In this document: positions 4,416-58,629 of the stretch, piece by piece
How the letters are laid out: each line of letters opens with the position of its first letter
Position numbering within the stretch: position 1 is the first letter of the stretch
DNA from: Ostreococcus lucimarinus
Lineage: Eukaryota
NCBI GenBank assembly: GCA_000092065.1
Contig: CP000587.1
Reading direction: 5' to 3' (one strand)
DNA length: 64,000 bases
Notes under the pieces: model-generated
Told to the model about the DNA's origin: nothing
The model's input: only the letters and a program-made list of their open reading frames with translations
Database searches by the model: none
Program-made: the position numbers and the translations under genes

Positions 4416-7310
4416 ATGGAGACGCTGCCGAAACGCGCGCCCGCGACGACGCTCGCGGACGTCGTCGAACGCGTCGCGCGCGCGTGCCACGTCGAGCTTC
4501 GGCAGCTCGTCGAGCGATGCGCGGGCGCGGACGCGCGCGCGCGCGCGGCGGAGCTCGCGCGGTACGCGCACCGCGCGCGGCAGCGACTCGTCAGGTGCGC
4601 GATCGTCGAGCGGTGGTCGCGGAAGAGCGCGAAGATCGCGACGGTGGCGACGAACGCGCACCTGACGCTGCGCGCGCACGAGGAGGCGTTCGCGAAGCTC
4701 GCGGATGGGCTGTTTCATTTGCACCAACAAATCGAGTGGGCCAAGGCGCCGGCGTGGGATCTGGCGGGGGCGCTGAACGTGCTGTGCGACGGGGACTACG
4801 AGCTGGGGAGGGAGATATCGGAGATCGGCGTCGGGCGAGTCGCGGCGACGGAGGAGACGGAGGAGACGGAGGAGACGCGCGAGCGGAGGTTGGACTTCGA
4901 ACGGAGATTCGAGGAAGAGATGACGGAGCGATTGGTGCGATCGAAGACGCACGGATGCGCGACGAGGGACGATCACTCGGAGTGGCCGAATGAAAAATTC
5001 AAGGTGTTCGCGATCGGGGGGGGGAAAGTCGAGGTGGGGGTCGAGGGAGAGTATCGCGCGACGCTCTCGCTCGGAGGACCCGTGGCGCCGAACGCGACGG
5101 AGCAACCGCGGTACGGAGGGTGGCGCGTAGAAACGATAGAGATGTTGGCGGGGGACGAGAAAGGGGCGAAGTTCGAGCTGAACAAAGCCGAGACGCGAAA
5201 GTTGGCGGACATGGCGTGCGCGAGCATGGTCGGGCTGCCTCCGTTTGGTCAAAAGCTCGCCGACGACGCGCCGCCGTTGGAGCCGTTACATCTCAAAGGT
5301 TTGCACGGCGTCGCGAGCGATGCGGTGCTGCTGAAATCCGCCGCCGCAATTCTCGCGCAGGCTGGAGCGCTGAAGGACGCCGCGGAGCGTGCGAACTCTG
5401 AGTCGCGCTGGTCTCGAAACGCCGTCAAGGTTGAAATCGTCAAGGGCGAAGCGGCGGGTATTTTAAAGGGCGTACGCGTGGCTTTTTGGCGTCAAAACGT
5501 CGCCAGCGCCGACGAGGCGGGAATGTTGGACGTTTCGTTCAACCCCGAGACCGCGGATTTGCGCGCCAAGGCGCGGGCGCCGGGTGAGGCTGAGTTTTTC
5601 GATTTGCCCGTCAATTACGCGCGCGTCGATTTGGAAGCCATCCTCGTCGAAGCCATCCGTATAGCGTCTAGTAAGAAATTGCACTCGGTCTCGACCGAGG
5701 TGAGCGGGGAAAAATCGTTCACGACTGTCGTGGAAGAGTCGATGACCGCGGAGGAGTGCGCGTGCTCAGAAGACGAAGACGCGTGGGGAACCGACGCTCG
5801 ACCCGCGATTCGTCTCGAGATTTCGAAATTCACGAACATATTCATCACCTGTCGAATTTCTGACGGTACTTTGATCCTGCACGGTGCGGGTGAGCTCGTA
5901 CCGTCCGCAACGGAGGCAGATCTTTCAAAGAGATTAGCTCTTGAAGGGCACGACGCCATCGTCAGCATCGTCGAAGAAGTCTCCGTCGCCGTCGAGCAGC
6001 AAGAGCTCAAGGGTTTGCTTCGCACGTCCGGGACGTCGGTGCATCCTGCGCCAAAAACCTTAGGCGGCGAACCGTGGAGTACTTCGGATGCAGTCCCGAG
6101 CGGCGTTGCGCCGACTGCCTTGGTACCCGTCGTGCCGAGCGACGGCGGCGTCTTCGTCGCGACTTGGATGGGAGCGACGCCGACTTTCGCCCTTGTCAGA
6201 GCGCATCGAGTTAACCCGGCGTCGAGATACATCGCGCATTCAGTCGAAAAGCTCAATCTCGGGGCGCGAAAAGGCTCAAAGGCTGATGTCGTCGTGAAAA
6301 TGATTGGTGAGGCGTGTCGCGACTTGAGCGTCGACGCGCAACGCTCAGCGTTGATGCGCGCCTTGAAAGAGCAGCGCGTCCCCTTCGTCGACATTCGGCC
6401 GACATCGAAAGGAACGAAAAAAGCCGCAAACACCGTGAGTTTTGAGATCGTAAACACTTCGCGTTGGGCGCAAAGTAAGTACAAACGTGCGATAAAGCAG
6501 AAATCTCCGCTCAAGGCGCACGTCACGCTACGAGGCATCGACGGCTTGTCGGCGAGCATCGGTGGCGAAACGCGCGCTTACGAGCACTCCGAGTTCATGA
6601 TACACGCCTTTCTAGCGGACGTCCGGCGTATCGCCGCGGCGCAAGGGTTTTTATCGGCGTTATCTGATAATGATTCCGGAGTAGATTTCGCCAAGCTCGG
6701 ATGCAAGTTGAGCCGCCAAGCCGCCGATGTGGTTTCAATTTCGTACAAAGACTCCATCGAATGTACCATCGAATGGCGCCATAGTGGGTATCTTGGTCCG
6801 GGTTTGTACGCCGACGGCGAACGACTCAGCTCGTCGGCCAAGCGCGCGCTCAGCGTCGCCGCGCGTGATGGCCGATGTGAGATTTTTGCGTGCGCGCTTC
6901 GCGCCGTCGAAGCGGCGGCGAGCCATTTTGCTCAACTCCACGGTGACTTCCAACTCACCTTTGGTGCACCGAGTGTTTTATCAATCGTGAGAATCATCGG
7001 TGTCAGCGCGATGCGGGTGTGTTCGATTGGATTCAGACTCGACGGTTCGGTCTCCTTCGTCGTCGGTCGAGGAGGAGACGGCGCTCACGACGACGGCTCC
7101 ACGAACGATGACGAGATGAACATCACGGACGACCACGAAGCGCTCATTCCCACGCGCCCCGAAGGCTTGACGCAGTATATCGACGAGATATCCGCCGCCT
7201 TGGAAGGACCACTGGGGTCGAAACCAAAGCACGGAGACGCCGTCGTCGCGAACGCGTCGTCGGCGTCGCCGGCGCTCGCGGCGCTCGCGAAATCAGTCGT
7301 GGCGAAGTGA
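4416..7310 (+). CDS. Mediator complex subunit MED14 (Rgr1)-like protein
   Basis: ORF 3693..7310 is 1205 aa. Its first 240 aa translate GC-rich low-complexity sequence, and I take the first plausible ATG at 4416 (METLPKRAP). The segment LVRCAIVERWSRKSAKI...HLHQQIEWAKAPAWDLAGALNVLCDGDYELGREI resembles the MED14 N-terminal domain, and the length fits MED14. Confidence 0.5.
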   Translation: METLPKRAPATTLADVVERVARACHVELRQLVERCAGADARARAAELARYAHRARQRLVRCAIVERWSRKSAKIATVATNAHLTLRAHEEAFAKLADGLFHLHQQIEWAKAPAWDLAGALNVLCDGDYELGREISEIGVGRVAATEETEETEETRERRLDFERRFEEEMTERLVRSKTHGCATRDDHSEWPNEKFKVFAIGGGKVEVGVEGEYRATLSLGGPVAPNATEQPRYGGWRVETIEMLAGDEKGAKFELNKAETRKLADMACASMVGLPPFGQKLADDAPPLEPLHLKGLHGVASDAVLLKSAAAILAQAGALKDAAERANSESRWSRNAVKVEIVKGEAAGILKGVRVAFWRQNVASADEAGMLDVSFNPETADLRAKARAPGEAEFFDLPVNYARVDLEAILVEAIRIASSKKLHSVSTEVSGEKSFTTVVEESMTAEECACSEDEDAWGTDARPAIRLEISKFTNIFITCRISDGTLILHGAGELVPSATEADLSKRLALEGHDAIVSIVEEVSVAVEQQELKGLLRTSGTSVHPAPKTLGGEPWSTSDAVPSGVAPTALVPVVPSDGGVFVATWMGATPTFALVRAHRVNPASRYIAHSVEKLNLGARKGSKADVVVKMIGEACRDLSVDAQRSALMRALKEQRVPFVDIRPTSKGTKKAANTVSFEIVNTSRWAQSKYKRAIKQKSPLKAHVTLRGIDGLSASIGGETRAYEHSEFMIHAFLADVRRIAAAQGFLSALSDNDSGVDFAKLGCKLSRQAADVVSISYKDSIECTIEWRHSGYLGPGLYADGERLSSSAKRALSVAARDGRCEIFACALRAVEAAASHFAQLHGDFQLTFGAPSVLSIVRIIGVSAMRVCSIGFRLDGSVSFVVGRGGDGAHDDGSTNDDEMNITDDHEALIPTRPEGLTQYIDEISAALEGPLGSKPKHGDAVVANASSASPALAALAKSVVAK

Positions 7311-7369
7311 AACTCCAGCGAAGTGAAACGGTAGGCGTGACAAAAAATAAACTAGTTATTGCATTTCAA

Positions 7370-7857
7370 TCAGTCGGTCGCAAACGTAAACTTGATTCCA
7401 GAATCGCCCACCGGCGCGTCGGCCTCCGCGCTCTTGTCCTTGCCGAACGACCGCTCGTACTCGCTTCGTTCCTTTCTCGAATCGTCTTCCGCGCACGAAT
7501 CGCTCGCGCACACGCACGACGCCCCGAGCACCTTCACGACCTTCAGCTCGTATCCCTCGCCGCACGCACCGCCGCCTTGCTTGAACAACGATTCCGCGCT
7601 CAGCGCCGGCGCGCTCTCGGCGTCTCGCTTCCTGTCCTCCTCCATCTGCCGCATCATCTCCGCGTACGCGTCGTTGTTCCCGCTCTTATTCAGCCCCGCG
7701 CTCGCGACGGGCGTCATCGTCAGCGCCATCGCCGCCGACGCCGCGAGCGCGACGCACGCGCGCGCCAACGCGCCGTCCTCCTCACCGCGTCGTCGCGTCG
7801 TCGTCGCGCGCATCGTCGTCGTCGCGCGCCTCGCGCGCGTCTTCGTCGTCCGCACCG

Positions 7858-7890
<33 letters not shown>

Positions 7891-7903
7891 ACGTCGTCGC
7901 CAT
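7370..7903 (-). CDS. Hypothetical protein (poly-Thr N-terminus from a (GTC)n microsatellite, Cys-containing C-terminus)
   Basis: ORF 177 aa with ATG at 7903. It has high GC3 on the minus strand, and its C-terminal half (GEGYELKVVKVLGASCVCASDSCAEDD...) is not low complexity. It sits between MED14 and the Rieske gene. Confidence 0.3.
7863..7890. repeat. (GTC)n microsatellite, about 9 units
   Basis: A perfect trinucleotide run, read directly. It encodes the poly-Thr of the minus-strand ORF 7370..7903. Confidence 0.9.
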
Positions 7904-8055
7904 CGCGCGCGCCGTCGCGTCGCGCTCTGTCGTCGCCCGCCGCGCGCGCGCGTCGTCCTTATCCGCTCGTCGCGATCGCGACGCACACGTCGACGCGTCG
8001 ACGCGCGACCGCTCGCGCGCGCCGACCGCGCGCGTCCCCGATCGCGTCGTCCGCG

Positions 8056-9216
8056 ATGGCGCGCGCGACGCCGGCGCCGGCGCCGGCGCCGGCGACGGCG
8101 CGCGCGCGCGCGGAGGCGCGCGGCGACGCCGGTCGGCGGTCGGTCGCGGCGCGCGCGCGACGCGCGCGGGCGCGCGCGCCGGTCGGCGCGGTGGTGGACG
8201 ACGCGACGACGCGCGCGCGCGGCGCGCGCGGCGTCGACGGCGCGCGGCGAACGCGAGACGCGCGCGACTATTGGTTTCCGGTGTGCTTCTCGGGGAATCT
8301 GCGAGATAAGGACGCGCTGGTGGCGTTTGATTTGTTCAACGTGCCGTGGGTGCTGTTTCGGGGGCGCGACGGCGAGGTGGGGTGCGTGAAGGATGAGTGC
8401 TGTCATCGCGCGTGCCCGCTGTCGCTCGGGAAGGTGGTGGACGGACGGGTGCAGTGCCCGTATCACGGGTGGGAGTACGAGACGAACGGCGAGTGCGCGA
8501 AAATGCCTTCGTGTAGTTTTTTGAAGAACGTCTTCGCGGACGAGCTCAGGGTGATCGAGAGGGATGGGATGATATTCGTTTGGGCCGGAGAAAGCGATCC
8601 CGCGGACTTTGTTGGACCGGAGGCGGCGTGCGAGTCTTGGGACGAGGACGTGTACGAAGCCAACGAACCGGGGATGTTCACGACGGGCGAGGGATTCGTG
8701 ACGATGGCGGAAGTCATCGCGGACGTGAAACTTGACAGCGATGTCGTGGTGGAACGGTTGTTAGACATCACCGAGCGCGCGCGGCGGGAACCGGTGTCGG
8801 TGAAGAATCGCGGTCGAGGCGCACTCTTTCCGGTGGACGGCACGCGGTTGATTTCAAAAGTCTTGCGGATCGGTTACGACGCGGTACCGCAGAGCGTGGT
8901 TTTCAAACCGTCGTGCGTGATCGCGAGCACGATCGCGCTGAGACCGCGCGTAGGGGGTGGAGATGGGACTTCGATGCAAGTAGAGCAGTTGCACGTGTGC
9001 TTGCCCGCCAAGCCGGGGCTCACGCGCGTCCTGTTCCGCATGGCTTTCGATTTCGTCCCGGAGGGTGCGCAAAACGCGGCGGGTGACGTGTGGAAGAACT
9101 TAGCAATGCAGGTCCTACAAGAAGAGCTCGAAGACGTGCGAAGCGCGGGGCTGAAATCGGAAACGACATCCATAGCGGTTGAATCGTTTCGCGTCTTCAA
9201 GAGAGGAGACAAGTAG
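8056..9216 (+). CDS. Rieske [2Fe-2S] domain protein of the PAO/CAO/Tic55 oxygenase family, lacking a mononuclear-iron motif
   Basis: ATG at 8056. It has the complete Rieske ligand set, CHRACPLSLGKVVDGRVQCPYHGW (CxH-x16-CxxH), preceded by YWFPVCFSGNL, as in chlorophyllide a oxygenase and pheophorbide a oxygenase. No E/N-x2-D-x2-H-x4-H motif appears in the remaining 200 aa. The N-terminal 75 aa look like an A/R-rich transit peptide. Confidence 0.75.
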   Translation: MARATPAPAPAPATARARAEARGDAGRRSVAARARRARARAPVGAVVDDATTRARGARGVDGARRTRDARDYWFPVCFSGNLRDKDALVAFDLFNVPWVLFRGRDGEVGCVKDECCHRACPLSLGKVVDGRVQCPYHGWEYETNGECAKMPSCSFLKNVFADELRVIERDGMIFVWAGESDPADFVGPEAACESWDEDVYEANEPGMFTTGEGFVTMAEVIADVKLDSDVVVERLLDITERARREPVSVKNRGRGALFPVDGTRLISKVLRIGYDAVPQSVVFKPSCVIASTIALRPRVGGGDGTSMQVEQLHVCLPAKPGLTRVLFRMAFDFVPEGAQNAAGDVWKNLAMQVLQEELEDVRSAGLKSETTSIAVESFRVFKRGDK

Positions 9217-9268
9217 ACACTAAAATTCTATTTTATTAATACACGCGCCGCTGACAGAAACGTCATCA

Positions 9269-9843
9269 TCACGCCGTCTTCAACGCGATCCCGAGCGCGC
9301 GATCCCTCTTCGCGCCCATGCGCGCGCTCGCGCTCGCCAACGGCTTCGCCGCGTTTCGTCCGACGGTTTTCGTCCAAACGATGAACTGATACGACAACCA
9401 AAGTTTCCCCCCGAACGTGATGGGCTTGATGCATCCCCGGAAAAACAGCGACTCCGCCAACGACAGCGTCAATCTCTCCGCGTTCGCCGCTCGCAGCGCC
9501 GGCACGCGCGTCGTCGCTTTCGCCGTCTGCTTCGCCGCCGCCGCGAGCGTCTTCCGAAACAGCGGCGCCGCCTTCTCGGCCACCTTCGTCTTCGCGAGCG
9601 GCTTCAGCACCGTCCGCGACGGTTCGATCGCGTACGCCGCGATCCACGTCGACGCCGCGAACGCCACGGATATCACCTCGTGAAACCTGCGCGCGCGTCG
9701 TCGAGTCCGAGTCAGTCTTCGCGTCGTCTTCGCTTTATCCGCCTCCTTCGCGCGTCGCTCGCGCGCGTCACGCACACGAACGCCGGAACGACGTCCGTCG
9801 GGGTGAGTCCTTTATCGACGAAGTACTCGCGCGCGCGTCCCAT
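9269..9843 (-). CDS. Small hydrophobic protein, 2 exons (9843..9776 and 9686..9269); function unknown
   Basis: The supplied ORF 9269..9775 starts at GTG and has no internal ATG, yet its GC3 is about 90 percent. An exact intron signature lies at its 5' end on the minus strand: donor GTGCGT at 9775..9770, ACTGAC at 9716..9711, and acceptor CAG at 9689..9687. The upstream exon carries ATG at 9843 (MGRAREYFVDKGLTPTDVVPAF) and joins in phase to V-FHEVISVAFAASTWIAAYAIEP. Confidence 0.45.
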
Positions 9844-23429: not shown

Positions 23430-24950
23430 ATGAGCGAGAACGACATGGCGGTCGCGAACGCGCCGGTGGACGCGTCGTGCGCGAAGAGTGCGATCGAGGG
23501 CGCGAGCGGCGACGCGCGAGCGGCGGCGGCGGTGCCGGCGTGGATGGCGGATGACGACGACGACGGGTTGACGGAGGAACAGCGAAGGGTGATCGCGGAG
23601 CGGGTGGCGGCGTTGCAGAATCGATTTAAGAAGTTTGAGGAGAAAACGACGCGGGAGAAGGTGGAGGAATTGATGCTCGGGAACGCGGATAAGGGGTTGA
23701 CGGAACGAGAGGCGGACATGGTGCTGAGAGTGTGTAACGGGAACGAGTTCGAGGCGAGCGACCGCCTCGGCGAGGCGGAGGATGGGGAATCGTTTTTGAT
23801 GTCTATTCGGTTCATGATTCAGGAAGAGGACGCGCTGAAACGACGTTCGCAGAGCTCAAAAGCGGCACAGACGGCGAACGAGCGGTTTAACAAGCGCATC
23901 GAGCGCTTGCGTAAGCGTCGGATGTCGTTCGGCGGCGACGAAGAGGACGAGGAAGACGCGGGCGAGCCGGAGGAGTTCTTCGAGACGGAGTACATTTTAG
24001 AAGAGAGTCTCGGCGTACAATTCGTGCGTCACACGAAGAAGCACGTGAATGTGAAACGTTTGCGTCTAGACGACGCCATCGCGCGCGCGCAAGTGGCGGA
24101 AGAGCTCGCGGAGCCGGAGGTCAACCCGTACGAAGGATGGTCCGAGGCGCGTATCAAGGCGTGGAAGAATCGCGAAAAGAATGAAAATCAATACTATTAT
24201 CGATTCAACGAACCGGGAGAGATGCAAGCGAACGGGAAATGGACGGACGAAGAACACCAAAAGTTCATGGATATCATCGCCTCTCTTCCTGGCGGCAAGG
24301 CGAACTACGAATGGGGCACGTTTTCCAAAGGTATCCCAGGCCGCGTCGGTTACCAGTGCTCGAATTATTACCGAACCTTGGTCAAAAACAATATCATCCA
24401 AGACGAAAACTATATGGTGGACCCGGTGTCGGGTGACCTGCGATTCAACTTCAAGAACAAGGGCTTCACGCGCGCCGAACCCGTCGAGGGTGAACCGCGC
24501 ATGGTCATGGTTAAGAAGGTCATCAAGCAGAAGAAACCGAAGGCCCCGAAGCAGCCGAAGAAGGCGAAGAAGAAGGTGAAGAAATCGGACGACAAGGCGT
24601 TCCACTGCACCATCAGAGCGGGTCCCGTGCGTTCGAGCGGTCGAGCGACTAAGAAGACGTACACCGACGGCGGCGACGACGACGAGGATTTCGACGATGA
24701 ATTCGAGGAACTTCCAGTACTCCCGGGATTCATCGATCCCATCACTCGCATGGCCATCGAAGAACCGGCGATTTCGCCGTACGGCCACGTCGCAGGTTAC
24801 GAGACGTGGTGCAAGATTCTTCGCCAACCCGAGGCACCGGACACGTGTCCGTTCACGAAGCAACCGTTAAAACGTCGCGAGCTGATCAAGCTCACGCACG
24901 AAAACATCGACCAATACCGCTCGAAGATCGTCGAAAACCAACAGACGTAG
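23430..24950 (+). CDS. SANT/Myb-like domain protein with a C-terminal U-box-like domain and a basic NLS stretch
   Basis: ATG at 23430. The Myb/SANT region is KWTDEEHQKFMDIIASLPGGKANYEWGTFSKGIPGRVGYQCSNYYRTL. The U-box consensus without zinc ligands is DPITRMAIEEPAISPYGHVAGYETWCKIL...TCPFTKQPLKRRELIKL (compare CPITxELMxDPVI...TCPxTxQPL). A K-rich linker lies between the two. Confidence 0.6.
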   Translation: MSENDMAVANAPVDASCAKSAIEGASGDARAAAAVPAWMADDDDDGLTEEQRRVIAERVAALQNRFKKFEEKTTREKVEELMLGNADKGLTEREADMVLRVCNGNEFEASDRLGEAEDGESFLMSIRFMIQEEDALKRRSQSSKAAQTANERFNKRIERLRKRRMSFGGDEEDEEDAGEPEEFFETEYILEESLGVQFVRHTKKHVNVKRLRLDDAIARAQVAEELAEPEVNPYEGWSEARIKAWKNREKNENQYYYRFNEPGEMQANGKWTDEEHQKFMDIIASLPGGKANYEWGTFSKGIPGRVGYQCSNYYRTLVKNNIIQDENYMVDPVSGDLRFNFKNKGFTRAEPVEGEPRMVMVKKVIKQKKPKAPKQPKKAKKKVKKSDDKAFHCTIRAGPVRSSGRATKKTYTDGGDDDEDFDDEFEELPVLPGFIDPITRMAIEEPAISPYGHVAGYETWCKILRQPEAPDTCPFTKQPLKRRELIKLTHENIDQYRSKIVENQQT

Positions 24951-25002
24951 ATTCCTCACCTTGTGATGAATACCTTTTGTACCTCACTTCCGTCCGCTCG
25001 CC

Positions 25003-25305
25003 ATGGCATCATCCCGCGCCGCCGCGCCCCCGAGTGGAGAAAACGCGCAAGTGCGCCATCTCGGGCGCGGCAACCGCGTGCGCACGCCTACGCATCCGAC
25101 GAAGGGCGACTATTTGAGCATCAAGACCGAAGAAGTCATCTTCGGCATCTTGTTCGCGTTCATGGCGTGGAAACTGTGGCAGAGCGTGCGCGGTTTATTT
25201 AGATACTGGAAGTACGTGCGCGCGCCGAACGCGCCGGAGACAGAGCTCGAGGCAGGGGCGATCGCGTTCGAGGAAGATGACGATGAGAACGAAAAGATTG
25301 ATTGA
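25003..25305 (+). CDS. Hypothetical small single-pass membrane protein
   Basis: ORF 100 aa with ATG at 25003. It has one hydrophobic helix (VIFGILFAFMAWKLWQSV) and moderate GC3. It lies between two convergent genes. Confidence 0.25.
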   Translation: MASSRAAAPPSGENAQVRHLGRGNRVRTPTHPTKGDYLSIKTEEVIFGILFAFMAWKLWQSVRGLFRYWKYVRAPNAPETELEAGAIAFEEDDDENEKID

Positions 25306-25378
25306 TTGATGGAGCGGGAAGGGTGGGACGGGACGTCGCGTAGGAATTAGTGTGTTGTAGTGTATCTATCGGTTCGGT

Positions 25379-25383
25379 TTACA
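25379..25383 (-). promoter_or_regulatory. TGTAA motif (minus strand) immediately after the SMC6 stop
   Basis: Plus-strand ggtttacaaattt reads taaatttgtaaacc on the minus strand. Confidence 0.25.
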
Positions 25384-25386
25384 AAT

Positions 25387-28300
25387 TTAAGACGGACGAG
25401 CGGCGATCATCTTTTGCACTTTGACGTCTGGGTCGTCGGCGTTGATGGCGCTCAAATCCTGCGGCGTGATGAACAAAAACTGTTTGTTTGAGTGATTGTC
25501 GCTTCTCGCAAATTCAAGAAGCGTCTTCATAGATATTCTACGGTTCACGGCATCCATGAATACGTCGAACTCATCCATCGCTCGGAAAGGCGAGTCAGAT
25601 TCATCGCCAAGCGCGAGGTTGAACGCGAGCGTGGAATACGATCGTTCACCACCACTCAAGGCGCGAGTGTCTGTGATAGCTCTCGTGTTCGTGCCATCCT
25701 TGAGCTTGATGATCAACTGCGATTCCTCGTAGTTGACTTCAATTTGACCCGCTTGCCCTTTCGCTTGCATATGATAGTTGAATCTGTGCGATACGTTGGC
25801 GGCGGTCTGGCGCGCTTGTGTTACCATCGTCTCCCGGCGCTTTCTGACGCCCACTCTGAGCTTTTGGAAAATCTTCTTTGAGCTCTCCACACCGTGTTCG
25901 AGTTTGATGAGCTTTCGCTTTCGGTCCGATAATTCATCGTTCACTTCTTCGTATGGTCTCTTGTGTCGACTCTCTTCCTTCTTCATCGATTCTTTCGTCT
26001 TTTCGTACAAGCGTTGCAGCTGTGTCGGTAACAAAGTGATATCGCCTGCGTGCTCTGCGACTTCGCGGTCACAAATTTCTTTCTTCGTTTTGTCGGCCAG
26101 CTCTTCGCATTCCGTCTTCATCGCCTGTATACTAGTTTCGCAGTCTTCGATGAGATTATCTGCTTGTTGAAGCCGCTCCACGCAAGTTTCAACTTGTTTC
26201 TCTGCCTTTTGACGTTCCGAATCAATCTTCTGCATTGCTTTGGCGTATTGCTCCACTTCTGCCTTGTACGAATCGGCGAGTGAGAGTTTCTCATTGATGA
26301 CGTTCTCTGCAATATCATGTGCCTCTTTAGCTTGCGTGAAAGCGAATTCGGCTTCTTTAAGACTACTTTGATGCTTGGATAAGTCGACATTGAGGCTGTC
26401 GAGCTCCTCCTGGAGCGTACTCACGTCAACCCCAGTGCCGCTCGAGTCTTCGGCGTCAAGTTTCGCTTGCTGCAAATCACTGAACGCCTTCTGAGCGTTC
26501 TTATTGAGAGTACTGAATTCAGCTTCTTTTTTCTTGATCATATTCGCAATGTCCTTGACGGCTCGCATGCACGCAGCCTCGTCGTTGCTGAGCAATTTGA
26601 TTTCAGATTGCTTTTCCTTGACTCGATTTTCCATCGACGCAATCTGCGCTTTCGGATCCGTTCCGAGTCGTTGTGCTTGATTGTAGCTTTTGAAGGCTTC
26701 ATCTCGCACGACTTGACCTGTCATGAAGATTTTACGATGGAAAGTATACGCCACCGCGACTTGCTTTTGTTTCGCGGCGCCGGAATAGAACATGCCTCTC
26801 GCCTCGCGTTCGTCTTTCATGAGCACGGCTCGTTCGATGCCGGCGCTATCGACGAGGAAGTTGAAAACCACGTCGTGTTTGCATTCCAGGACACTTTCGA
26901 TGGACGTGAATTCGGTTTGATTGGGTACCTTTTCAACAGGGATGTTGTATCTTCCACGGTTGAAGTCGACGCTTTGAATGCTTAAATTGTTCATGCCACA
27001 TTCTTTGCTGATTTGGCGCAGCTTATCCATGTCTTTCGGGCTTGAGACCAAAAATGTCGTCATAGATTGACCGAGAGCTTCTTCAACCGGAACAATCCAA
27101 CTTTGATCTTTGAGAGTGACGTGCATACCGACGGGTCCAATTGGAGGCTTGGAAAACTCACCCAGTCGCCTTTGCACCGTGTCGACGAGTCGTGGCATTT
27201 GCTGTCCGAAAAGCACCAACCTGTTGCTTGACGTCTGCTTCAGAGTGGAGATATGCTTGCGAATGTCGTTGATCTCATTCTCAGCAAACTTCTTTTGTCG
27301 CGCGAAGTTACTCTGTGCTCGCTGTTTGTCTTCCTGTCCGGCCTTCAATTTCTCTATATCGCCCGAGCACGTCTCAATCTCAGCCTTGGCAGCCACGAGG
27401 TTCGAGCTCAGTTTTTGCAATCGCCTATCAGTCTCTGTCGTGTCGCCTCGCTGCGCCTCCAACGACCGTTGAATCTTTGACTCCGTGTCGGACACGCGCT
27501 TCGAAAGCTTCCGCACGCTCGTTTCCTCGCTCAGTTTATCCGTCTCGGCCTTTTGCAATTGTCGCCCCGCTTCTCTACGCTCATTCTCAGCCTGACGACG
27601 CTCCGCGCTAAGCTCTTGAAGCTTTCTACTGAAATCTTCTGACTGTCGCCCAAACTCTTCGTTGTCTATGGCCGCCTTTTCGAGCGTCGCTTGCGCGGTG
27701 CCAAGTTTGGCTTGAAGTTCCCCTCTCTTCTGCACATACACCTGTTGTGCCTCCTTTTCTTCTTCCAACTTCTTTTCCGCCTCGACCACCTTCGACCACG
27801 CCAGACGATTCCTAAAATCGATCGCCTTCGATCGTAGCTCTTGCACGCGCTCAAACGAATGGAGCTCGTGCGTCAATTCTGCCACTTCCTCTCTAAGTTT
27901 TGGAATCGTTTCCAAGTGCTCGTTCAGCACGTCCTTCATCTCGTTTGACTTATTCTTTGCAATCTCTTGCAGCTCCATCAAATCCGACAACAGCGTCGCA
28001 TCGATGAAAAACTGATACTTCTTAGTCGCATCACCGGTGTGCAAGAACTTCTTCGCCATGTCCTGCGTCATCACCGTGATGGGATTATCGACGTCGATGC
28101 AAAAGTGGTCCGCGAGCTTATTCAACTCGTCCACCCGCGTCCCGACCGTTTCCCCGCTCTCGCTCTTAATCTTCAGCGAATTCGCCCCCGTCGCGTTCAA
28201 CACCTTCTCAACCGTGATCGATCGTCCGAACACATCCGGTTTAAACGCATCCTCTCCATCGTTCGAGATCACGACGACGACGCGCGCGAAGCTCGCCCCC

Positions 28301-28569
28301 GTCTTGATCATCCCTTTCGCGCTCTTCGTGCTCGACCGTCCGATGGATTTCATCTTCGCCCCGAGCGCGACCGCCAACGCGGTCAAAATCGCGCTCTTCC
28401 CGCTCCCGTTCTCGCCCGTGACGTAATTGATTCGCGGTCCGAGCTCAACCTTTGCGTTCGCGTGGCACATGAAGTTGTGCATGGTGACGCGAACGAACGC
28501 CCCGGCGACGCCTGGGAAGTGCGTCGGGGGCTTCGTTTCGGCGCCCTTGCGCTCCGTCTTCGCCACCAT
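25387..28569 (-). CDS. SMC6: Structural maintenance of chromosomes protein 6 (SMC6)
   Basis: ORF 1060 aa with ATG at 28569. It has the N-terminal Walker A head (FMCHANAKVELGPRINYVTGENGSGKSAILTALAVALG), long coiled coils, a hinge, and a C-terminal signature and Walker B head (ALSGGERSYSTLAFNLALG...MDEFDVFMD). SMC6-specific spacing. Confidence 0.85.
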   Translation of the reverse strand: MVAKTERKGAETKPPTHFPGVAGAFVRVTMHNFMCHANAKVELGPRINYVTGENGSGKSAILTALAVALGAKMKSIGRSSTKSAKGMIKTGASFARVVVVISNDGEDAFKPDVFGRSITVEKVLNATGANSLKIKSESGETVGTRVDELNKLADHFCIDVDNPITVMTQDMAKKFLHTGDATKKYQFFIDATLLSDLMELQEIAKNKSNEMKDVLNEHLETIPKLREEVAELTHELHSFERVQELRSKAIDFRNRLAWSKVVEAEKKLEEEKEAQQVYVQKRGELQAKLGTAQATLEKAAIDNEEFGRQSEDFSRKLQELSAERRQAENERREAGRQLQKAETDKLSEETSVRKLSKRVSDTESKIQRSLEAQRGDTTETDRRLQKLSSNLVAAKAEIETCSGDIEKLKAGQEDKQRAQSNFARQKKFAENEINDIRKHISTLKQTSSNRLVLFGQQMPRLVDTVQRRLGEFSKPPIGPVGMHVTLKDQSWIVPVEEALGQSMTTFLVSSPKDMDKLRQISKECGMNNLSIQSVDFNRGRYNIPVEKVPNQTEFTSIESVLECKHDVVFNFLVDSAGIERAVLMKDEREARGMFYSGAAKQKQVAVAYTFHRKIFMTGQVVRDEAFKSYNQAQRLGTDPKAQIASMENRVKEKQSEIKLLSNDEAACMRAVKDIANMIKKKEAEFSTLNKNAQKAFSDLQQAKLDAEDSSGTGVDVSTLQEELDSLNVDLSKHQSSLKEAEFAFTQAKEAHDIAENVINEKLSLADSYKAEVEQYAKAMQKIDSERQKAEKQVETCVERLQQADNLIEDCETSIQAMKTECEELADKTKKEICDREVAEHAGDITLLPTQLQRLYEKTKESMKKEESRHKRPYEEVNDELSDRKRKLIKLEHGVESSKKIFQKLRVGVRKRRETMVTQARQTAANVSHRFNYHMQAKGQAGQIEVNYEESQLIIKLKDGTNTRAITDTRALSGGERSYSTLAFNLALGDESDSPFRAMDEFDVFMDAVNRRISMKTLLEFARSDNHSNKQFLFITPQDLSAINADDPDVKVQKMIAARPS

Positions 28570-53826: not shown

Positions 53827-56800
53827 TCAAAGTCGGAAAAGCTTTCGTTTGGGTTGCGTGTGCTCGCCAACCACCCGCGGGCGCGCCGAGGCGTCGGTCA
53901 AGGGTGACGAGAAATTCGGCGCGGGCGCGAGCGAGAAATGCTTCGAAGGCGAGTACGGTTCGCGAACGTACTTGATGCCCGAAGATGGTGGCGGTGCGTT
54001 CATGGCGGCGTCGTAGCCGTTGGAGGACATGAATTTACGATCGTACATGTAATCAGCGTGCACGCCCACCGGGGCGGCGTTTTGATTGGTGGACTCTCGC
54101 GGCGGCGGCGCGAAATGCGGCGGCGGCGCGTACATCCTGTCGTACATCATCCGCTGCATCATCTCACGCATCGTCGCGAGTTCAGATTCGAGCGCTCCAA
54201 TTTTTGTCACCATGTACTCATGTTCTTTCACTGGAACGGTCACGAGGTCGCCGGATATAGCCACGGGCTGCTCCACGCGCATCTTTGACTGCGGCGTATC
54301 GTCGCTCGGCGATCGCGCGACGGCGTACGGCTTTCCACCACCGAGGCTTTCGCTCTGCGGGGACTCAATTATCGGTGGCTTAGCGTATCGGGCGACAGGT
54401 GGTTTTGTGTGCGACTTTCGCTCGGCTTCCTCAGGGCTGGAAACCGGCTTGATCGCCACGGATGGGAGGTTCATTGACTCAGCCTTGACGGGAGACTTAG
54501 CCAGCGGTCCGACAAACTCGCCTCGACTCCATCTTCTGCATTCATCCTCAAAATGTTCTTCCACGTGATCGCGAATGAGAGAAAATCGCGGGAAAACTTT
54601 GTCATCCAGTTTGAACTTATACTGACGATGACCCGTGTACTCGACGAACTCAGCCAAGAAGCCGTTGATGTCTCCCAGTTCCAACTTTTTCACAGACGCC
54701 TGCACCTTAACTTGCGCTGGTGGCGGTTTCGACTTTTCGCGCGGTGGCTCGCGTGGCACAATGACAGTTTCTGTCGTTGCCTCGACTATATCGTCGTGTT
54801 TGACGATGGCAACCTCTTCTTCCTCTTCAAAGACTTCGTTTGATTCCTTGGAATTCGTCAACGACGCCAATTTCTGCAACGCTTCTTGCACGCTATCTTT
54901 GCGCTGTTTTTTCGCACTATCACGAAGCGCGTCAAAACTAATTTTCAAGAGCGGGTCGACATCTGCTGATTTTGTTGGAGTCGTCTCCGCAGACTTCGCA
55001 GCGATTTCTTCATACTGCGCGACTTTGACCTTCACTACACCGCTCTGTTTGACTTTGTTGAGCTCGGCCGTGATGAGTTTGATCGCTTCGAGCACCACTT
55101 GCGTGCCTGGATGATCGAGTCCGAACTTTTGCACTCTGATATCTTTCGCGCGAGTGTAACACGGTAGTGCCTCACCCCACTCTTTCATTTCCATCAACAA
55201 CTCACCCAACTCGACACATCGCGTAGCAATGTTGGTGTGCGCCGCGTCGAACTCGCCCTCAGCGATTTTCAGCGCCTGCTCGAAACACGCCTTCGCCTTA
55301 AGTGTTCTACCTTGTGATCTATAACATCTCCCGAGATTGATCAAGTAAGTTTCAAGCTCTGAACTAGCGTGGAAATCATGTTCGGCGATTTCGACAGCAC
55401 GGCTGTACAGAGGTTCGGCTCTTTGGGCTTGGTCCATACTCTTGTATTTTTCAGCCAAGGAATTTAGACTCGCAGCGAGTCCTGGGTGCACAGTTTCATT
55501 CGTTTCTTTGAGAATGGCTTCCGCCTCTTTGTATTGACGGAGCGCTTCGAGATTTTCACCACGCGCTCTTAGAACACTCGCGAGATATATTTGATGCACA
55601 GCGAGGTTGGGGTGATTTCGCCCGAAAAGTTGCGTATCCACGTCGAGTGCTTTCGTGTATAAAGCCTTCGCTTGATCGAAGTTACGTAACTCTAAGTGCA
55701 TAGACGCTAAATCACTCAATCTTTCAGCTGTTCCATGATGCAAATCTCCAAATCTTGACTTGGTGATGTTGAGCGCCTTGATGAACGTTTGCTTTGCCTC
55801 TTCGGGCTTTTTCAGTTTACGCAGAACACGCGCGTGCTCGGTGAACACGCTGGCGAGAAGTTCCAAAAGCAATGGTTGACCGTTTGAATCGGTGACACAC
55901 TCCATCTCCTTCGTCACGTCTTCGTAAACCTCTCGAGCGCTGACTAAATCATTTTTCATAACGTACACTTTCGCGAGGGATCTCAAATTCTCAAGCAGTC
56001 CTAGAGAACGATCCGGGTACGCGTCGACGCAATGTTTGAGTGCTTGCTCCATGCAGAATTCACTTTTATCCCATTCTCCATGCCTAGCGTAGACCGCACT
56101 CAATCGAAGCATCTCGCGATATATAGCGTCGTGATCAGCACCGAGCTTGTTTTCCAACTCGTCCATCAGTTGTTCGTGTATTTCGATTTCCTTCAAGCCT
56201 TTACCCTTCAACCCATACAACGTCGCTACATTCATTGTTACGCAAGCGGCGTGATTGAATACTTCCTTCACGCTCTTGTCTTTCATGCAGACTCGCCACG
56301 CCGCTAAGGACGCCTCTGCACTCTCTAGAGCGTCGTTAATGAATTCCTCGACTTCACCCTTCGTCCCTCGCAGGTTATGATTATCGAGGGTAATTTCTTC
56401 ATCCTTTGTGCGCACCAAGCACAGACTCTCTTCGTTCATGATCATCGCACCTAAAGGTGTATTTCCATTGAAGTTTGCTGACTCGAACTTCCGAGCGAGC
56501 TTTGCCACACTCGCCGCTTTTTCCCAATCCGCCGTCTGACGCAAAGCATTTGCGTACTTCATGTTGAGCGACGCTGCATGTTGCAGCTGAAACGTTGCTC
56601 GACTACACGCGAGATCGCACACCGCGATGACGCTCGTGTAATCTGAAATCCACTTCATGAAGTCGGCGATAGATTCAGCACACGAGTCCCGCGTGCGATC
56701 GTTCATTCTTCCGAGGCGAGTGAGAATCGACTCCATGGGGGTGCGCTGGACAACGTCCGATACTTGCGTCGCCGTCGCAATTTTCCAACTCAATACCAGC

Positions 56801-58515
56801 TCGTTGATATATCGCTGTTTCCACAAGAAATGAATCACCTGTGGATCTGTGATGTAGCCCATGAACTGATCCCTAGCGACCAACCACTCACCGTTTCTCA
56901 CAAAATGCAGTAACTCGAGGACGTGGTGCACGTTGAAATCACCACTCGTGTCGGAAAACTTGCGCAGGAAGTACGTCATGGCGTCGCGTTGAATGTTATT
57001 CTTTGCTTCATCCTTCACCAAGTACCTGCTGCGTACATAGTCGATGACTACCGATGATCGTAGGACGAGCGCATCTTGCGGCATCTCAGGCGCTCGCGCG
57101 CCGTCTTCTTCATAGCACCAGCAAAGATGCGCGACGTCATCCGTGAGCGCCAAGAACGACGAAGACGTCCTACCGACCTCGATAATATCGGCGATTTCAT
57201 TCGCTGAAAGGCCAGCGCGTGAAGAAGCCATGAGCGTGAACAATTGACGCACCACATTATGGCCGTGGTTGTACTCTAATCCTTCGAATATATACCTTAA
57301 CAACTGCTCGATCGTCTCAGGTATTTGTCTCAACTCGTGCGCGACGTCCAGAGGTGCGTCGACTCTGCGCTGACTCAATTTTACCCGTCGACGCATTTCA
57401 TGCGCGACAAGATAGATATAAGTCGGCGAACTCGCGTCCTTGTAGCTATATATTGGCTCAAACAGATCACTCGTGATTTCTCGCTCGTCGTTTCGGCTGA
57501 AAAGGCCGCGAGCGAGCTGCGTGCGTTCCTTGATGCCGAGCGGTGGCAACCGCTTCCTCGCAACGGCTGCCGCGTTTTCACCGCCGCTCGCTAAATAATT
57601 CACCGCATCTCCTTTCGTTCGCGCGCCAATGATCACACGAACGTCTGACATCATAGAAGACGGCAACCAGTCGGACATTTTCACCGAGCCGAGCTCCGCC
57701 GCCGCGTCTAAATCGTCTACGACAAGCACCACCACGCTCGATGTTGTCAGCGCCAATTCCTCCATCAATCGAACGAACACTCGTCCCGTCTCTTCCGCGG
57801 TCACCGGCATGTTTGTAAATCTCGCTTGTCCGAGCATCTTTCGCACGCGTTCGCACATCGTCCACAGCACATGCCTCAAATCGCACTCCCCCGGCGTCGG
57901 TCCTCGACAGCACACGTGCAACGCCAGCGGTTTCTTCCCCATCACCCTCTCACCCGTCACCTCCTCCTCCTCTATCATTCTCGCCGTGCGTTCGCGCAAA
58001 TCTTTAACGAACTCGCTCAGCACCGAGCTCACGCCGCTCCCTCGTTCGCCCTCGAGCACGAACACGTTCGGCGCGTCGTCTCGCAGCGCGTGCGCGCGCA
58101 GCTTTTCCAGCGTCTCTGCCCGTCCGACAAACTTCCCTCGCGCATCTCTTCGCGATATCGCAGCGCTCGCGCGTTCAATTATCACTGATCGCGCCTCTGC
58201 GTCTTCGGTTCCGTCGATCGCGACGCGTCGCGTCGTCGGCAGGCGCAATTCTCGTCGCTCGAGGTCGGTGAGCGAACCGACCGCGGGCGCGCTCGAGGGC
58301 GGCGAATTGGCGGGCGCGGACGCCGCGCGCCGCGCGCGGTCGGGTTTGAGGATGGATTTGGGCGCGCTCGACGCGCCGGGAGCGGCGCGCGCGCTCGAGG
58401 GCGGCGACGGGGGCATCGCGCGCGTCGCGATGTGCGGCAGTGGTCGTTGGCTCGGGCGCTCGCGCGGCGCCGCGGCGTCTGTCGCGCGCCGATTCCGATC
58501 GAAAGCGCGACGCAT
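53827..58515 (-). CDS. STAND-class P-loop NTPase (NACHT/NB-ARC-like) with kinesin-light-chain-type TPR repeats and an uncharacterised C-terminal region (NPHP3-like architecture)
   Basis: The ORF's first codon at 58560 is TTG, and the first ATG is at 58515. The NTPase core is VFVLEGERGSGVSSVL (Walker A lacking the lysine), VVVLVVDDLD (Walker B), VRVIIGART and LPPLGIKERTQLARGLF (GLPL-like). About 10 TPR_12-type repeats occupy aa 800-1150. They are followed by roughly 400 aa with a conserved-looking module (FLAEFVEYTGHRQYKFKLDDKVFPRFSLIRDHVEEHFEDE) and proline-rich tails. Confidence 0.7.
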   Translation of the reverse strand: MRRAFDRNRRATDAAAPRERPSQRPLPHIATRAMPPSPPSSARAAPGASSAPKSILKPDRARRAASAPANSPPSSAPAVGSLTDLERRELRLPTTRRVAIDGTEDAEARSVIIERASAAISRRDARGKFVGRAETLEKLRAHALRDDAPNVFVLEGERGSGVSSVLSEFVKDLRERTARMIEEEEVTGERVMGKKPLALHVCCRGPTPGECDLRHVLWTMCERVRKMLGQARFTNMPVTAEETGRVFVRLMEELALTTSSVVVLVVDDLDAAAELGSVKMSDWLPSSMMSDVRVIIGARTKGDAVNYLASGGENAAAVARKRLPPLGIKERTQLARGLFSRNDEREITSDLFEPIYSYKDASSPTYIYLVAHEMRRRVKLSQRRVDAPLDVAHELRQIPETIEQLLRYIFEGLEYNHGHNVVRQLFTLMASSRAGLSANEIADIIEVGRTSSSFLALTDDVAHLCWCYEEDGARAPEMPQDALVLRSSVVIDYVRSRYLVKDEAKNNIQRDAMTYFLRKFSDTSGDFNVHHVLELLHFVRNGEWLVARDQFMGYITDPQVIHFLWKQRYINELVLSWKIATATQVSDVVQRTPMESILTRLGRMNDRTRDSCAESIADFMKWISDYTSVIAVCDLACSRATFQLQHAASLNMKYANALRQTADWEKAASVAKLARKFESANFNGNTPLGAMIMNEESLCLVRTKDEEITLDNHNLRGTKGEVEEFINDALESAEASLAAWRVCMKDKSVKEVFNHAACVTMNVATLYGLKGKGLKEIEIHEQLMDELENKLGADHDAIYREMLRLSAVYARHGEWDKSEFCMEQALKHCVDAYPDRSLGLLENLRSLAKVYVMKNDLVSAREVYEDVTKEMECVTDSNGQPLLLELLASVFTEHARVLRKLKKPEEAKQTFIKALNITKSRFGDLHHGTAERLSDLASMHLELRNFDQAKALYTKALDVDTQLFGRNHPNLAVHQIYLASVLRARGENLEALRQYKEAEAILKETNETVHPGLAASLNSLAEKYKSMDQAQRAEPLYSRAVEIAEHDFHASSELETYLINLGRCYRSQGRTLKAKACFEQALKIAEGEFDAAHTNIATRCVELGELLMEMKEWGEALPCYTRAKDIRVQKFGLDHPGTQVVLEAIKLITAELNKVKQSGVVKVKVAQYEEIAAKSAETTPTKSADVDPLLKISFDALRDSAKKQRKDSVQEALQKLASLTNSKESNEVFEEEEEVAIVKHDDIVEATTETVIVPREPPREKSKPPPAQVKVQASVKKLELGDINGFLAEFVEYTGHRQYKFKLDDKVFPRFSLIRDHVEEHFEDECRRWSRGEFVGPLAKSPVKAESMNLPSVAIKPVSSPEEAERKSHTKPPVARYAKPPIIESPQSESLGGGKPYAVARSPSDDTPQSKMRVEQPVAISGDLVTVPVKEHEYMVTKIGALESELATMREMMQRMMYDRMYAPPPHFAPPPRESTNQNAAPVGVHADYMYDRKFMSSNGYDAAMNAPPPSSGIKYVREPYSPSKHFSLAPAPNFSSPLTDASARPRVVGEHTQPKRKLFRL

Positions 58516-58629
58516 GCGGGGCGAAAGAGTGCGTAAATAATGCGAGATGTTGATTAACAACGTTCGAGGGATGAGAGCGTACCTAACGGGCTACGGCGTC
58601 GATGGCCGAAAATGCGCGCGCGAGCGGTG

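Follow-up and report, generated by a model that had tools for sequence, protein, structure and literature searches.

A single-exon gene at positions 8056 to 9216 (plus strand) of a 64,000-nucleotide stretch of the Ostreococcus lucimarinus genome (GenBank assembly GCA_000092065.1, contig CP000587.1), referred to below as the window, is highly likely to encode the Rieske [2Fe-2S] electron-accepting subunit of a heteromeric chlorophyllide a oxygenase (CAO). To our knowledge, CAO is the only enzyme known to produce chlorophyll b. The 386-amino-acid (aa) product of this gene is a paralogue of CAO that spans the full length of the catalytic core but whose iron site is dead; it does not represent a truncated half of the enzyme. 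The original prediction that this protein is the Rieske partner in a split CAO is upheld by its grouping with CAOs, the intact Rieske ligands, the substituted iron ligands, and the presence of mirror-image paralogues in related algae. Both the two-gene CAO and the O. lucimarinus gene pair are already known, so that the present result is a confirmation.

The gene is complete and consists of one unbroken open reading frame (ORF) of 386 codons, from ATG to TAG, with the start codon at 8056 being the earliest one past an in-frame stop at 7582; a wrong start was rejected on that ground. Its G+C content is 0.65 overall and 0.79 at third codon positions (GC3). The encoded protein is identical, from end to end, to XP_001418699.1 (ABO96992.1) of O. 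lucimarinus strain CCE9901 (UniRef A4S086; encoded on a 783,246-bp contig); its 90% cluster has 86 members, and the same or near-identical variants are found on many environmental contigs. The conserved core of the protein begins at Asp71, in D71-YWFPV, and follows an Ala/Arg-rich extension (aa 1 to 69, positions 8056 to 8262, with 23 Ala and 17 Arg among the 69 residues) that presumably represents a chloroplast transit peptide, judging from its composition. The protein has no counterpart of the long regulatory domain found at the N-terminus of CAOs from plants and chlorophytes. Two longer versions of this protein in the databases (P0002, 460 aa, and P0012, 509 aa) are likely gene-calling artefacts that read upstream through overlapping ORFs in alternative frames. 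In the window, alternative-frame ORFs at 7307 to 8389 and 7359 to 8309 (plus strand) overlap the 5' end of the gene; they are Arg-rich or Val-rich, which is typical of GC-rich DNA.

The Rieske domain (aa 73 to 156, positions 8272 to 8523) is recognized by the Pfam model PF00355 with an E value of 6.4e-23. It includes the ligand box CCHRACPLSLGKVVDGRVQCPYH (aa 115 to 137, positions 8398 to 8466), which fits the CxH-x16-CxxH pattern exactly and provides all four cluster ligands, Cys115 and His117 in C115-C-H117 and Cys134 and His137 in C134-P-Y-H137. A six-frame scan found only this single occurrence of the CxH-x15-20-CxxH motif in the window. Sequence searches of PDB matched the alpha3 Rieske oxygenases through the Rieske domain only (E value of 1e-16), and a search of NCBIfam, which has no CAO model, returned only sub-threshold Rieske matches. 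The first part of the box reads C-C-H (aa 115 to 117, positions 8398 to 8406) in the O. lucimarinus protein and in a homologue with 75% identity, as opposed to C-A-H in the Micromonas system and C-A-H or C-P-H in all other aligned CAOs, Rieske-type subunits, and outgroup proteins. The extra Cys residue next to a cluster ligand is therefore specific to a part of the Ostreococcus clade.

The mononuclear-iron site, in contrast to the Rieske box, is degenerate. In a multiple alignment, the ENLLDLAHAPFTH motif of CAO corresponds to ERLLDITERARRE (aa 233 to 245, positions 8752 to 8790), in which Glu stands at both His-ligand positions and Arg in place of the Asn, with the Asp retained. The distal iron ligand, the Asp of the GEDLRLV motif of CAO, is likewise replaced by Glu in the aligned QEELEDV (positions 9118 to 9138), so that all three ligand positions of the canonical 2-His-1-carboxylate site are substituted in the Rieske-bearing chain. 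The entire protein contains just three His residues, the Rieske ligands His117 and His137 and, in addition, His313, which makes a 2-His-1-carboxylate site impossible rather than merely unrecognized. No [N/E/D/Q]xxDxxHx3-5H motif was found in any of the six frames of the whole window. Having no iron site in its own chain, the protein is a homologue of Rieske oxygenases but not a self-sufficient one. The residues that replace the two His and the distal Asp differ among lineages: they are Glu/Glu/Glu in O. lucimarinus, Glu/Glu/Gln in the 75%-identical homologue, Gln/Asn/Glu in Bathycoccus prasinos, and Gly/Thr/Gln in the presumed Micromonas-like orthologues P0034 and P0038. Given this variation, a conserved alternative metal site formed by the three Glu residues was considered and rejected.

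The rest of the C-terminal domain is likewise degenerate but recognizable. A segment at aa 283 to 339 (positions 8902 to 9072) gives a weak match to the pheophorbide a oxygenase (PaO) domain PF08417 (19.6 bits, below the cut-off of 27) and contains the conserved QLHVCLPAKPGLTRVLFRM block that is common to CAO; it represents the PaO-like part of the catalytic-domain fold. The C-terminal YRRWR(N) motif of CAO is aligned with FRVFKR (aa 378 to 383, positions 9187 to 9204), and a stretch of 11 residues that immediately precedes this motif in CAO is missing. The YRRWR motif has been discussed as a tyrosyl-radical site in a 2026 review (PMC12963167). Its Tyr residue is replaced by Phe in the Rieske-type protein, and the motif is perfectly kept in the iron-binding partners described below, so the radical, if real, belongs to the partner subunit. 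An AlphaFold2 model of the O. lucimarinus protein, built from a 40-sequence alignment (mean pLDDT of 83.7, pTM of 0.84), was matched by Foldseek to alpha3 Rieske oxygenases, namely the dicamba monooxygenase DdmC (3gb4/3gob), GxtA/SxtT, and NdmA, over ∼340 to 370 aligned columns with E values of 1e-14 to 2e-17 and TM scores of 0.53 to 0.61. According to this model, the protein has retained the complete oxygenase fold, with a Rieske domain and a helix-grip catalytic domain, and has lost just the catalytic metal site. The two-domain fold is common to all these proteins; however, DdmC, SxtT/GxtA, and NdmA are only 14 to 22% identical to the O. lucimarinus protein and form homotrimers in which each chain has both metal centres.

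Comparison with single-chain CAOs leads to the same view of the protein. In tblastn searches, the CAOs of Nephroselmis and Tetraselmis aligned with aa 70 to 358 (or 42 to 358), i.e., across the whole catalytic core, with E values of 1e-55 to 1e-56. The full-length database matches that are named by function are CAOs from green algae, bryophytes, and seed plants (E values of 1e-48 to 1e-57, 33 to 42% identity, 71 to 92% coverage). The single-chain CAOs of Arabidopsis, Chlamydomonas, and Prochlorothrix hollandica are homologous to the O. lucimarinus protein over the entire catalytic core and have in common with it the WFPV, CxHRACPLSLG, and QLHVCxP..G.TR.L.RM blocks. The O. lucimarinus protein differs from them in three respects: the ligands of the 2-His-1-carboxylate site are gone, the YRRWR motif is not kept, and there is no N-terminal regulatory and degron domain. 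Identity to CAOs is 48 to 57% in the Rieske domain (compared to 37 to 41% for PaO-type and 36 to 38% for bacterial proteins) and only 25 to 30% in the C-terminal domain (12 to 19% and 18 to 21%, respectively). These data bear out the canonical Rieske centre and the CAO/PAO-like context that had been claimed for this gene, as well as the absence of an iron motif from the C-terminal ∼200 residues. Those residues do not form a featureless tail, however, but a recognizable degenerate CAO catalytic domain, and the description of the protein as a Rieske-only half holds as far as it is Rieske-bearing and iron-dead but not in the sense of a cut-down half, given that the full catalytic core and fold can be aligned.

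Homologues with the same pattern, an intact Rieske box and a substituted iron motif, were recovered in a word-indexed database search, also from several marine clades, and fall into three groups. The closest ones, with 70 to 99% identity, are taken here to come from Ostreococcus clades; among them, ERLLDITERARRE is also found in independent homologues of 72 to 75% identity. The second group, with 43 to 48% identity, includes the Bathycoccus prasinos protein XP_007514845.1 (about 42 to 47% identity), annotated as “iron-sulfur cluster-binding protein, Rieske family,” in which the lost iron motif reads ERLFTLTQRAVNK. At its C-terminus, this protein carries a long tail, acidic and rich in Ser, that the O. 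lucimarinus protein lacks. The third group is the P0034/P0038 type, with 43 to 46% identity in this search, 40 to 45% overall, and ∼60% in the Rieske domain, in which the iron ligands are replaced by residues such as Gln or Gly, as opposed to the three Glu residues of O. lucimarinus.

The family placement was examined with neighbor-joining (NJ) trees built for each domain and for the whole core, with 500 bootstrap replicates and explicit counting of bipartitions. The outgroups were eight Rieske plus PaO representatives from outside CAO, found in an exhaustive HMMER search and identified by Pfam, and two bacterial oxygenases. The split that unites CAOs with the iron-binding (Fe-type) and Rieske-type proteins, to the exclusion of PaO-type and bacterial ones, is supported at 99% for the core, 96% for the C-terminal domain, and 77% for the Rieske domain; the suggestion that phylogeny might place the protein outside CAO is not borne out by these distance-based trees. 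In the Rieske-domain tree, the Rieske-type clade is nested within CAOs, and monophyly of the full-length CAOs without it receives just 4%. An NJ tree of whole-length sequences rooted on the bacterial oxygenases only was uninformative (a long branch, with 39 to 46% support) and has been superseded by the per-domain trees.

If this protein is one subunit of a heteromer, the complementary iron-bearing chain should be encoded elsewhere, as had been predicted, and such chains do exist in the relatives. A search with the C-terminal half of Nephroselmis CAO, followed by one with a profile of the first matches, retrieved a large set of proteins of ∼340 to 420 aa that contain PaO and VanA_C domains and no Rieske domain. 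In these Fe-type proteins, ENLLDLAHAPFTH, GEDLRLV, and YRRWRN are perfectly kept, and the CxH...CxxH stretch is deleted or unrecognizable. Named members include the “chlorophyll a oxygenase” of Micromonas pusilla strain CCMP1545 (XP_003060874.1) and several Bathycoccus prasinos entries (CAL64xxxx); the Bathycoccus genome pairs a Rieske-type gene with an Fe-type one. An Ostreococcus-like representative, P0501, belongs to a cluster that is 80 to 83% identical to the K-rich P0180 type; the assembly collection has it in 354 blocks, including one with a 540,025-bp JGI contig, and it is 25% identical to the O. lucimarinus Rieske-type protein over the core (E value of 5e-21). In the window itself, tblastn with two full-length CAOs and the six-frame motif scan detected no second CAO-like stretch beyond the gene, consistent with a partner located elsewhere in the genome. 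The fallback view, in which a Rieske domain lacking an iron-bearing partner would be unusual in its own right, is not needed.

Two further Fe-type, Rieske-less CAO proteins, P0195 and P0209, do not belong to the tight Mamiellales-like clade of Fe-type proteins; P0195 carries a Val/Gly-substituted “VPVDVG” block. Both fit the two-gene CAOs that have been described beyond Mamiellophyceae, in Chloropicon, Caulerpa, and Bigelowiella (10.1101/2025.02.10.637544).

The two-gene arrangement has been characterized experimentally in Micromonas, a different genus of the same class, Mamiellophyceae. The two-chain CAO of M. pusilla has been purified and shown to form chlorophyllide b in vitro with VanB/NADPH (Liu et al. 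2022, PMC9615114), and both Micromonas gene products are needed according to the account of Kunugi, Takabayashi and Tanaka 2013 (J Biol Chem 288:19330) given in a 2025 preprint (10.1101/2025.02.10.637544). The same preprint describes heteromeric CAO in 7 of the 7 Mamiellophyceae genomes that it examined, those of O. tauri, O. lucimarinus, and Bathycoccus among them. For O. lucimarinus, two gene models are entered in its Table S1. The “Rieske domain” model, jgi|Ost9901_3|35581|e_gwEuk.7.272.1 on chromosome 7, is very probably the gene described here; the “Fe-binding domain” model, jgi|Ost9901_3|5015|gwEuk.12.214.1 on chromosome 12, would be the partner expected outside the window. The “Rieske domain” CAO gene of Bathycoccus in that table is Batpra1 3905 (XM_007514783.1), which may be the gene that encodes XP_007514845.1. 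The preprint refers to the Fe-bearing Micromonas subunit as MpCAO1 and to the Rieske-bearing one as MpCAO2 (10.1101/2025.02.10.637544). The Rieske subunit of M. pusilla has the same architecture as the O. lucimarinus protein: its N-terminus is short and carries no regulatory domain, its Rieske box is intact, its iron motif is degenerate, and the Fe-type partner is encoded by a gene of its own. The abstract of the 2013 paper on Micromonas CAO is said to number the two proteins in the reverse order, and these numbers are not used here.

A dead catalytic domain would also be expected in a stand-alone Rieske protein that has nothing to do with chlorophyll b, such as an electron carrier or a pseudo-oxygenase regulator of CAO/PaO descent. 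This explanation draws on the fast divergence of the C-terminal domain, which is only 36 to 39% identical between genera of the Rieske type, compared to ∼60% for the Rieske domain, and on the C-terminal-domain tree, where the clade forms a long branch apart from the remaining CAOs. It has to contend with the Micromonas system, in which, according to the accounts in PMC9615114 and 10.1101/2025.02.10.637544, the orthologous arrangement is required for chlorophyll b and is active in vitro. Moreover, every nameable lineage with a Rieske-type protein also has an Fe-type CAO, which lacks Rieske ligands and so could not take up electrons alone, and the homologue searches recovered no single-chain CAO from Mamiellophyceae, in line with the preprint's heterodimeric enzymes in all seven species. 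A function outside chlorophyll b synthesis is therefore considered quite unlikely. Degeneration on a broader scale, with the gene being a decaying duplicate on its way to a pseudogene and already functionless, would account for the loss of the catalytic ligands, of the YRRWR motif, and of the 11-residue C-terminal segment. Yet the reading frame is intact, the protein is conserved in three or more lineages at the genus level, none of which deviates at any of the four Rieske ligands, its Rieske domain is more strongly conserved than the rest, the GC3 value is what coding genes of O. lucimarinus typically show, and the protein or its near-identical variants recur on environmental contigs (see above), all of which renders decay very improbable. 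Finally, the gene model could be incomplete, with the iron motif of an ordinary single-chain CAO residing in a missed downstream exon, which had been raised as grounds for refuting the prediction, or being hidden by a frameshift or an error in the sequence. Nothing was found in favor of this explanation, and it is barely conceivable: the ORF runs unbroken through the motif position, where the aligned residues are substituted, not missing; the same substituted motif recurs in the independent 72 to 75%-identical homologues; the C-terminus coincides with the ends of the orthologues, so that no downstream exon is missing; all frames of the window are free of iron motifs and of further CAO-like stretches; and the next gene lies on the opposite strand only ∼12 bp downstream.

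Several points nevertheless weigh against the assignment of this protein as a subunit of heteromeric CAO. Its function in O. lucimarinus would follow from orthology to the Micromonas system. The trees are distance-based (NJ) only, and their PaO-type outgroups, identified by Pfam, are not verified PAO, PTC52, or TIC55 proteins. In the core and C-terminal-domain trees, the Rieske type is a long-branched sister to all other CAOs, including the cyanobacterial ones, with 65 to 72% support (72% for the C-terminal domain). This position could reflect long-branch attraction or a deeper origin; for the C-terminal domain, relaxed constraint would yield such a placement. The closest Fe-type sequence recovered is P0501 and not the chromosome 12 gene of O. 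lucimarinus itself. For the stoichiometry of the enzyme, proposals differ: a heterodimer was suggested first, and a trimer of dimers in PMC9615114.

With these points taken into account, the assignment to a heteromeric CAO remains the preferred one, and a plausible history can be outlined for it. That the core is full length but its iron site dead suggests a duplication after which each copy lost a different metal centre. In this scenario, the ancestor was a single-chain CAO gene; the Rieske-type copy would have kept the Rieske cluster but lost the 2-His-1-carboxylate iron site, and the Fe-type copy, which has been reported on chromosome 12, would have kept the iron site but lost the Rieske ligands. 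In Rieske oxygenases such as naphthalene dioxygenase and the alpha3 enzymes, the Rieske cluster and the iron of the same chain are too distant for electron transfer, and the electron crosses the subunit interface to the iron of the neighbour via the Asp of the DxxH motif. Because the electron passes between chains, the two metal sites are separable, and a heteromer of Rieske-only and Fe-only subunits keeps one full path per pair. An electron would be delivered from a reductant to the Rieske cluster of the O. lucimarinus protein and from there to the partner's Fe(II). At this site, O2 would be activated and the C7 methyl group of chlorophyllide a oxidized, which would yield the formyl group of chlorophyllide b. 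The partner is most likely held through the dead catalytic-fold domain of the Rieske-type subunit, which would act as the interface; we infer this geometry of the heteromer for O. lucimarinus. It is unlikely that the dead domain binds chlorophyll(ide) or another ligand and thereby regulates or gates the heteromer in place of the missing N-terminal regulatory domain, or that, in the Ostreococcus clade, the three Glu residues bind a different metal.

The genes around the Rieske-type gene code for MED14, a LON-substrate-binding-domain protein, diacylglycerol kinase, a RETICULATA-like protein, APC8/Cdc23, a BRCT protein, and an SMC-like ATPase; these are ordinary nuclear genes, and the window is thus a piece of an Ostreococcus chromosome and not of a Micromonas one. 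Directly upstream, at 7370 to 7903 on the minus strand, is a 177-aa ORF that has an 11-Thr run near its N-terminus and no Pfam match; an equivalent 176-aa gene is present on an independent metagenome contig (L005, 2318 to 2848), and the trinucleotide run that codes for the Thr tract differs in sequence between the window and an environmental variant (P0002). A 132-aa gene (9228 to 9647, minus strand) adjoins the Rieske-type gene on the other side, and another 132-aa gene (L006, 8084 to 8482, minus strand) stands next to an Fe-type gene. Segmental duplication was considered as the origin of the pair and rejected, since these two neighbours have no similarity; their equal size is coincidental and leaves no trace of such an event. 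The G+C content drops to 0.50 to 0.54 at 24000 to 28000 and 54000 to 58000, compared to 0.60 to 0.69 elsewhere in the window. These stretches coincide with long minus-strand ORFs, encoding an SMC/Rad50-like ATPase of 1060 aa (25387 to 28569) and a 1577-aa AAA_16 and multi-TPR (NPHP3-like) protein (53827 to 58560).

Beyond its confirmatory outcome, the analysis adds only that the GenBank entry XP_001418699.1 is still named “predicted protein,” for which “chlorophyllide a oxygenase, Rieske subunit” would be a better name. The authors of the work on two-gene CAO reportedly see a link between this arrangement, along with the missing regulatory domain, and the antennae rich in chlorophyll b that are found in low-light marine picoalgae. 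The O. lucimarinus protein provides a clean natural case of an enzyme whose gene was duplicated and whose two metal centres were then lost in complementary fashion, an outcome that is workable only because Rieske oxygenases pass electrons between subunits and not within one.

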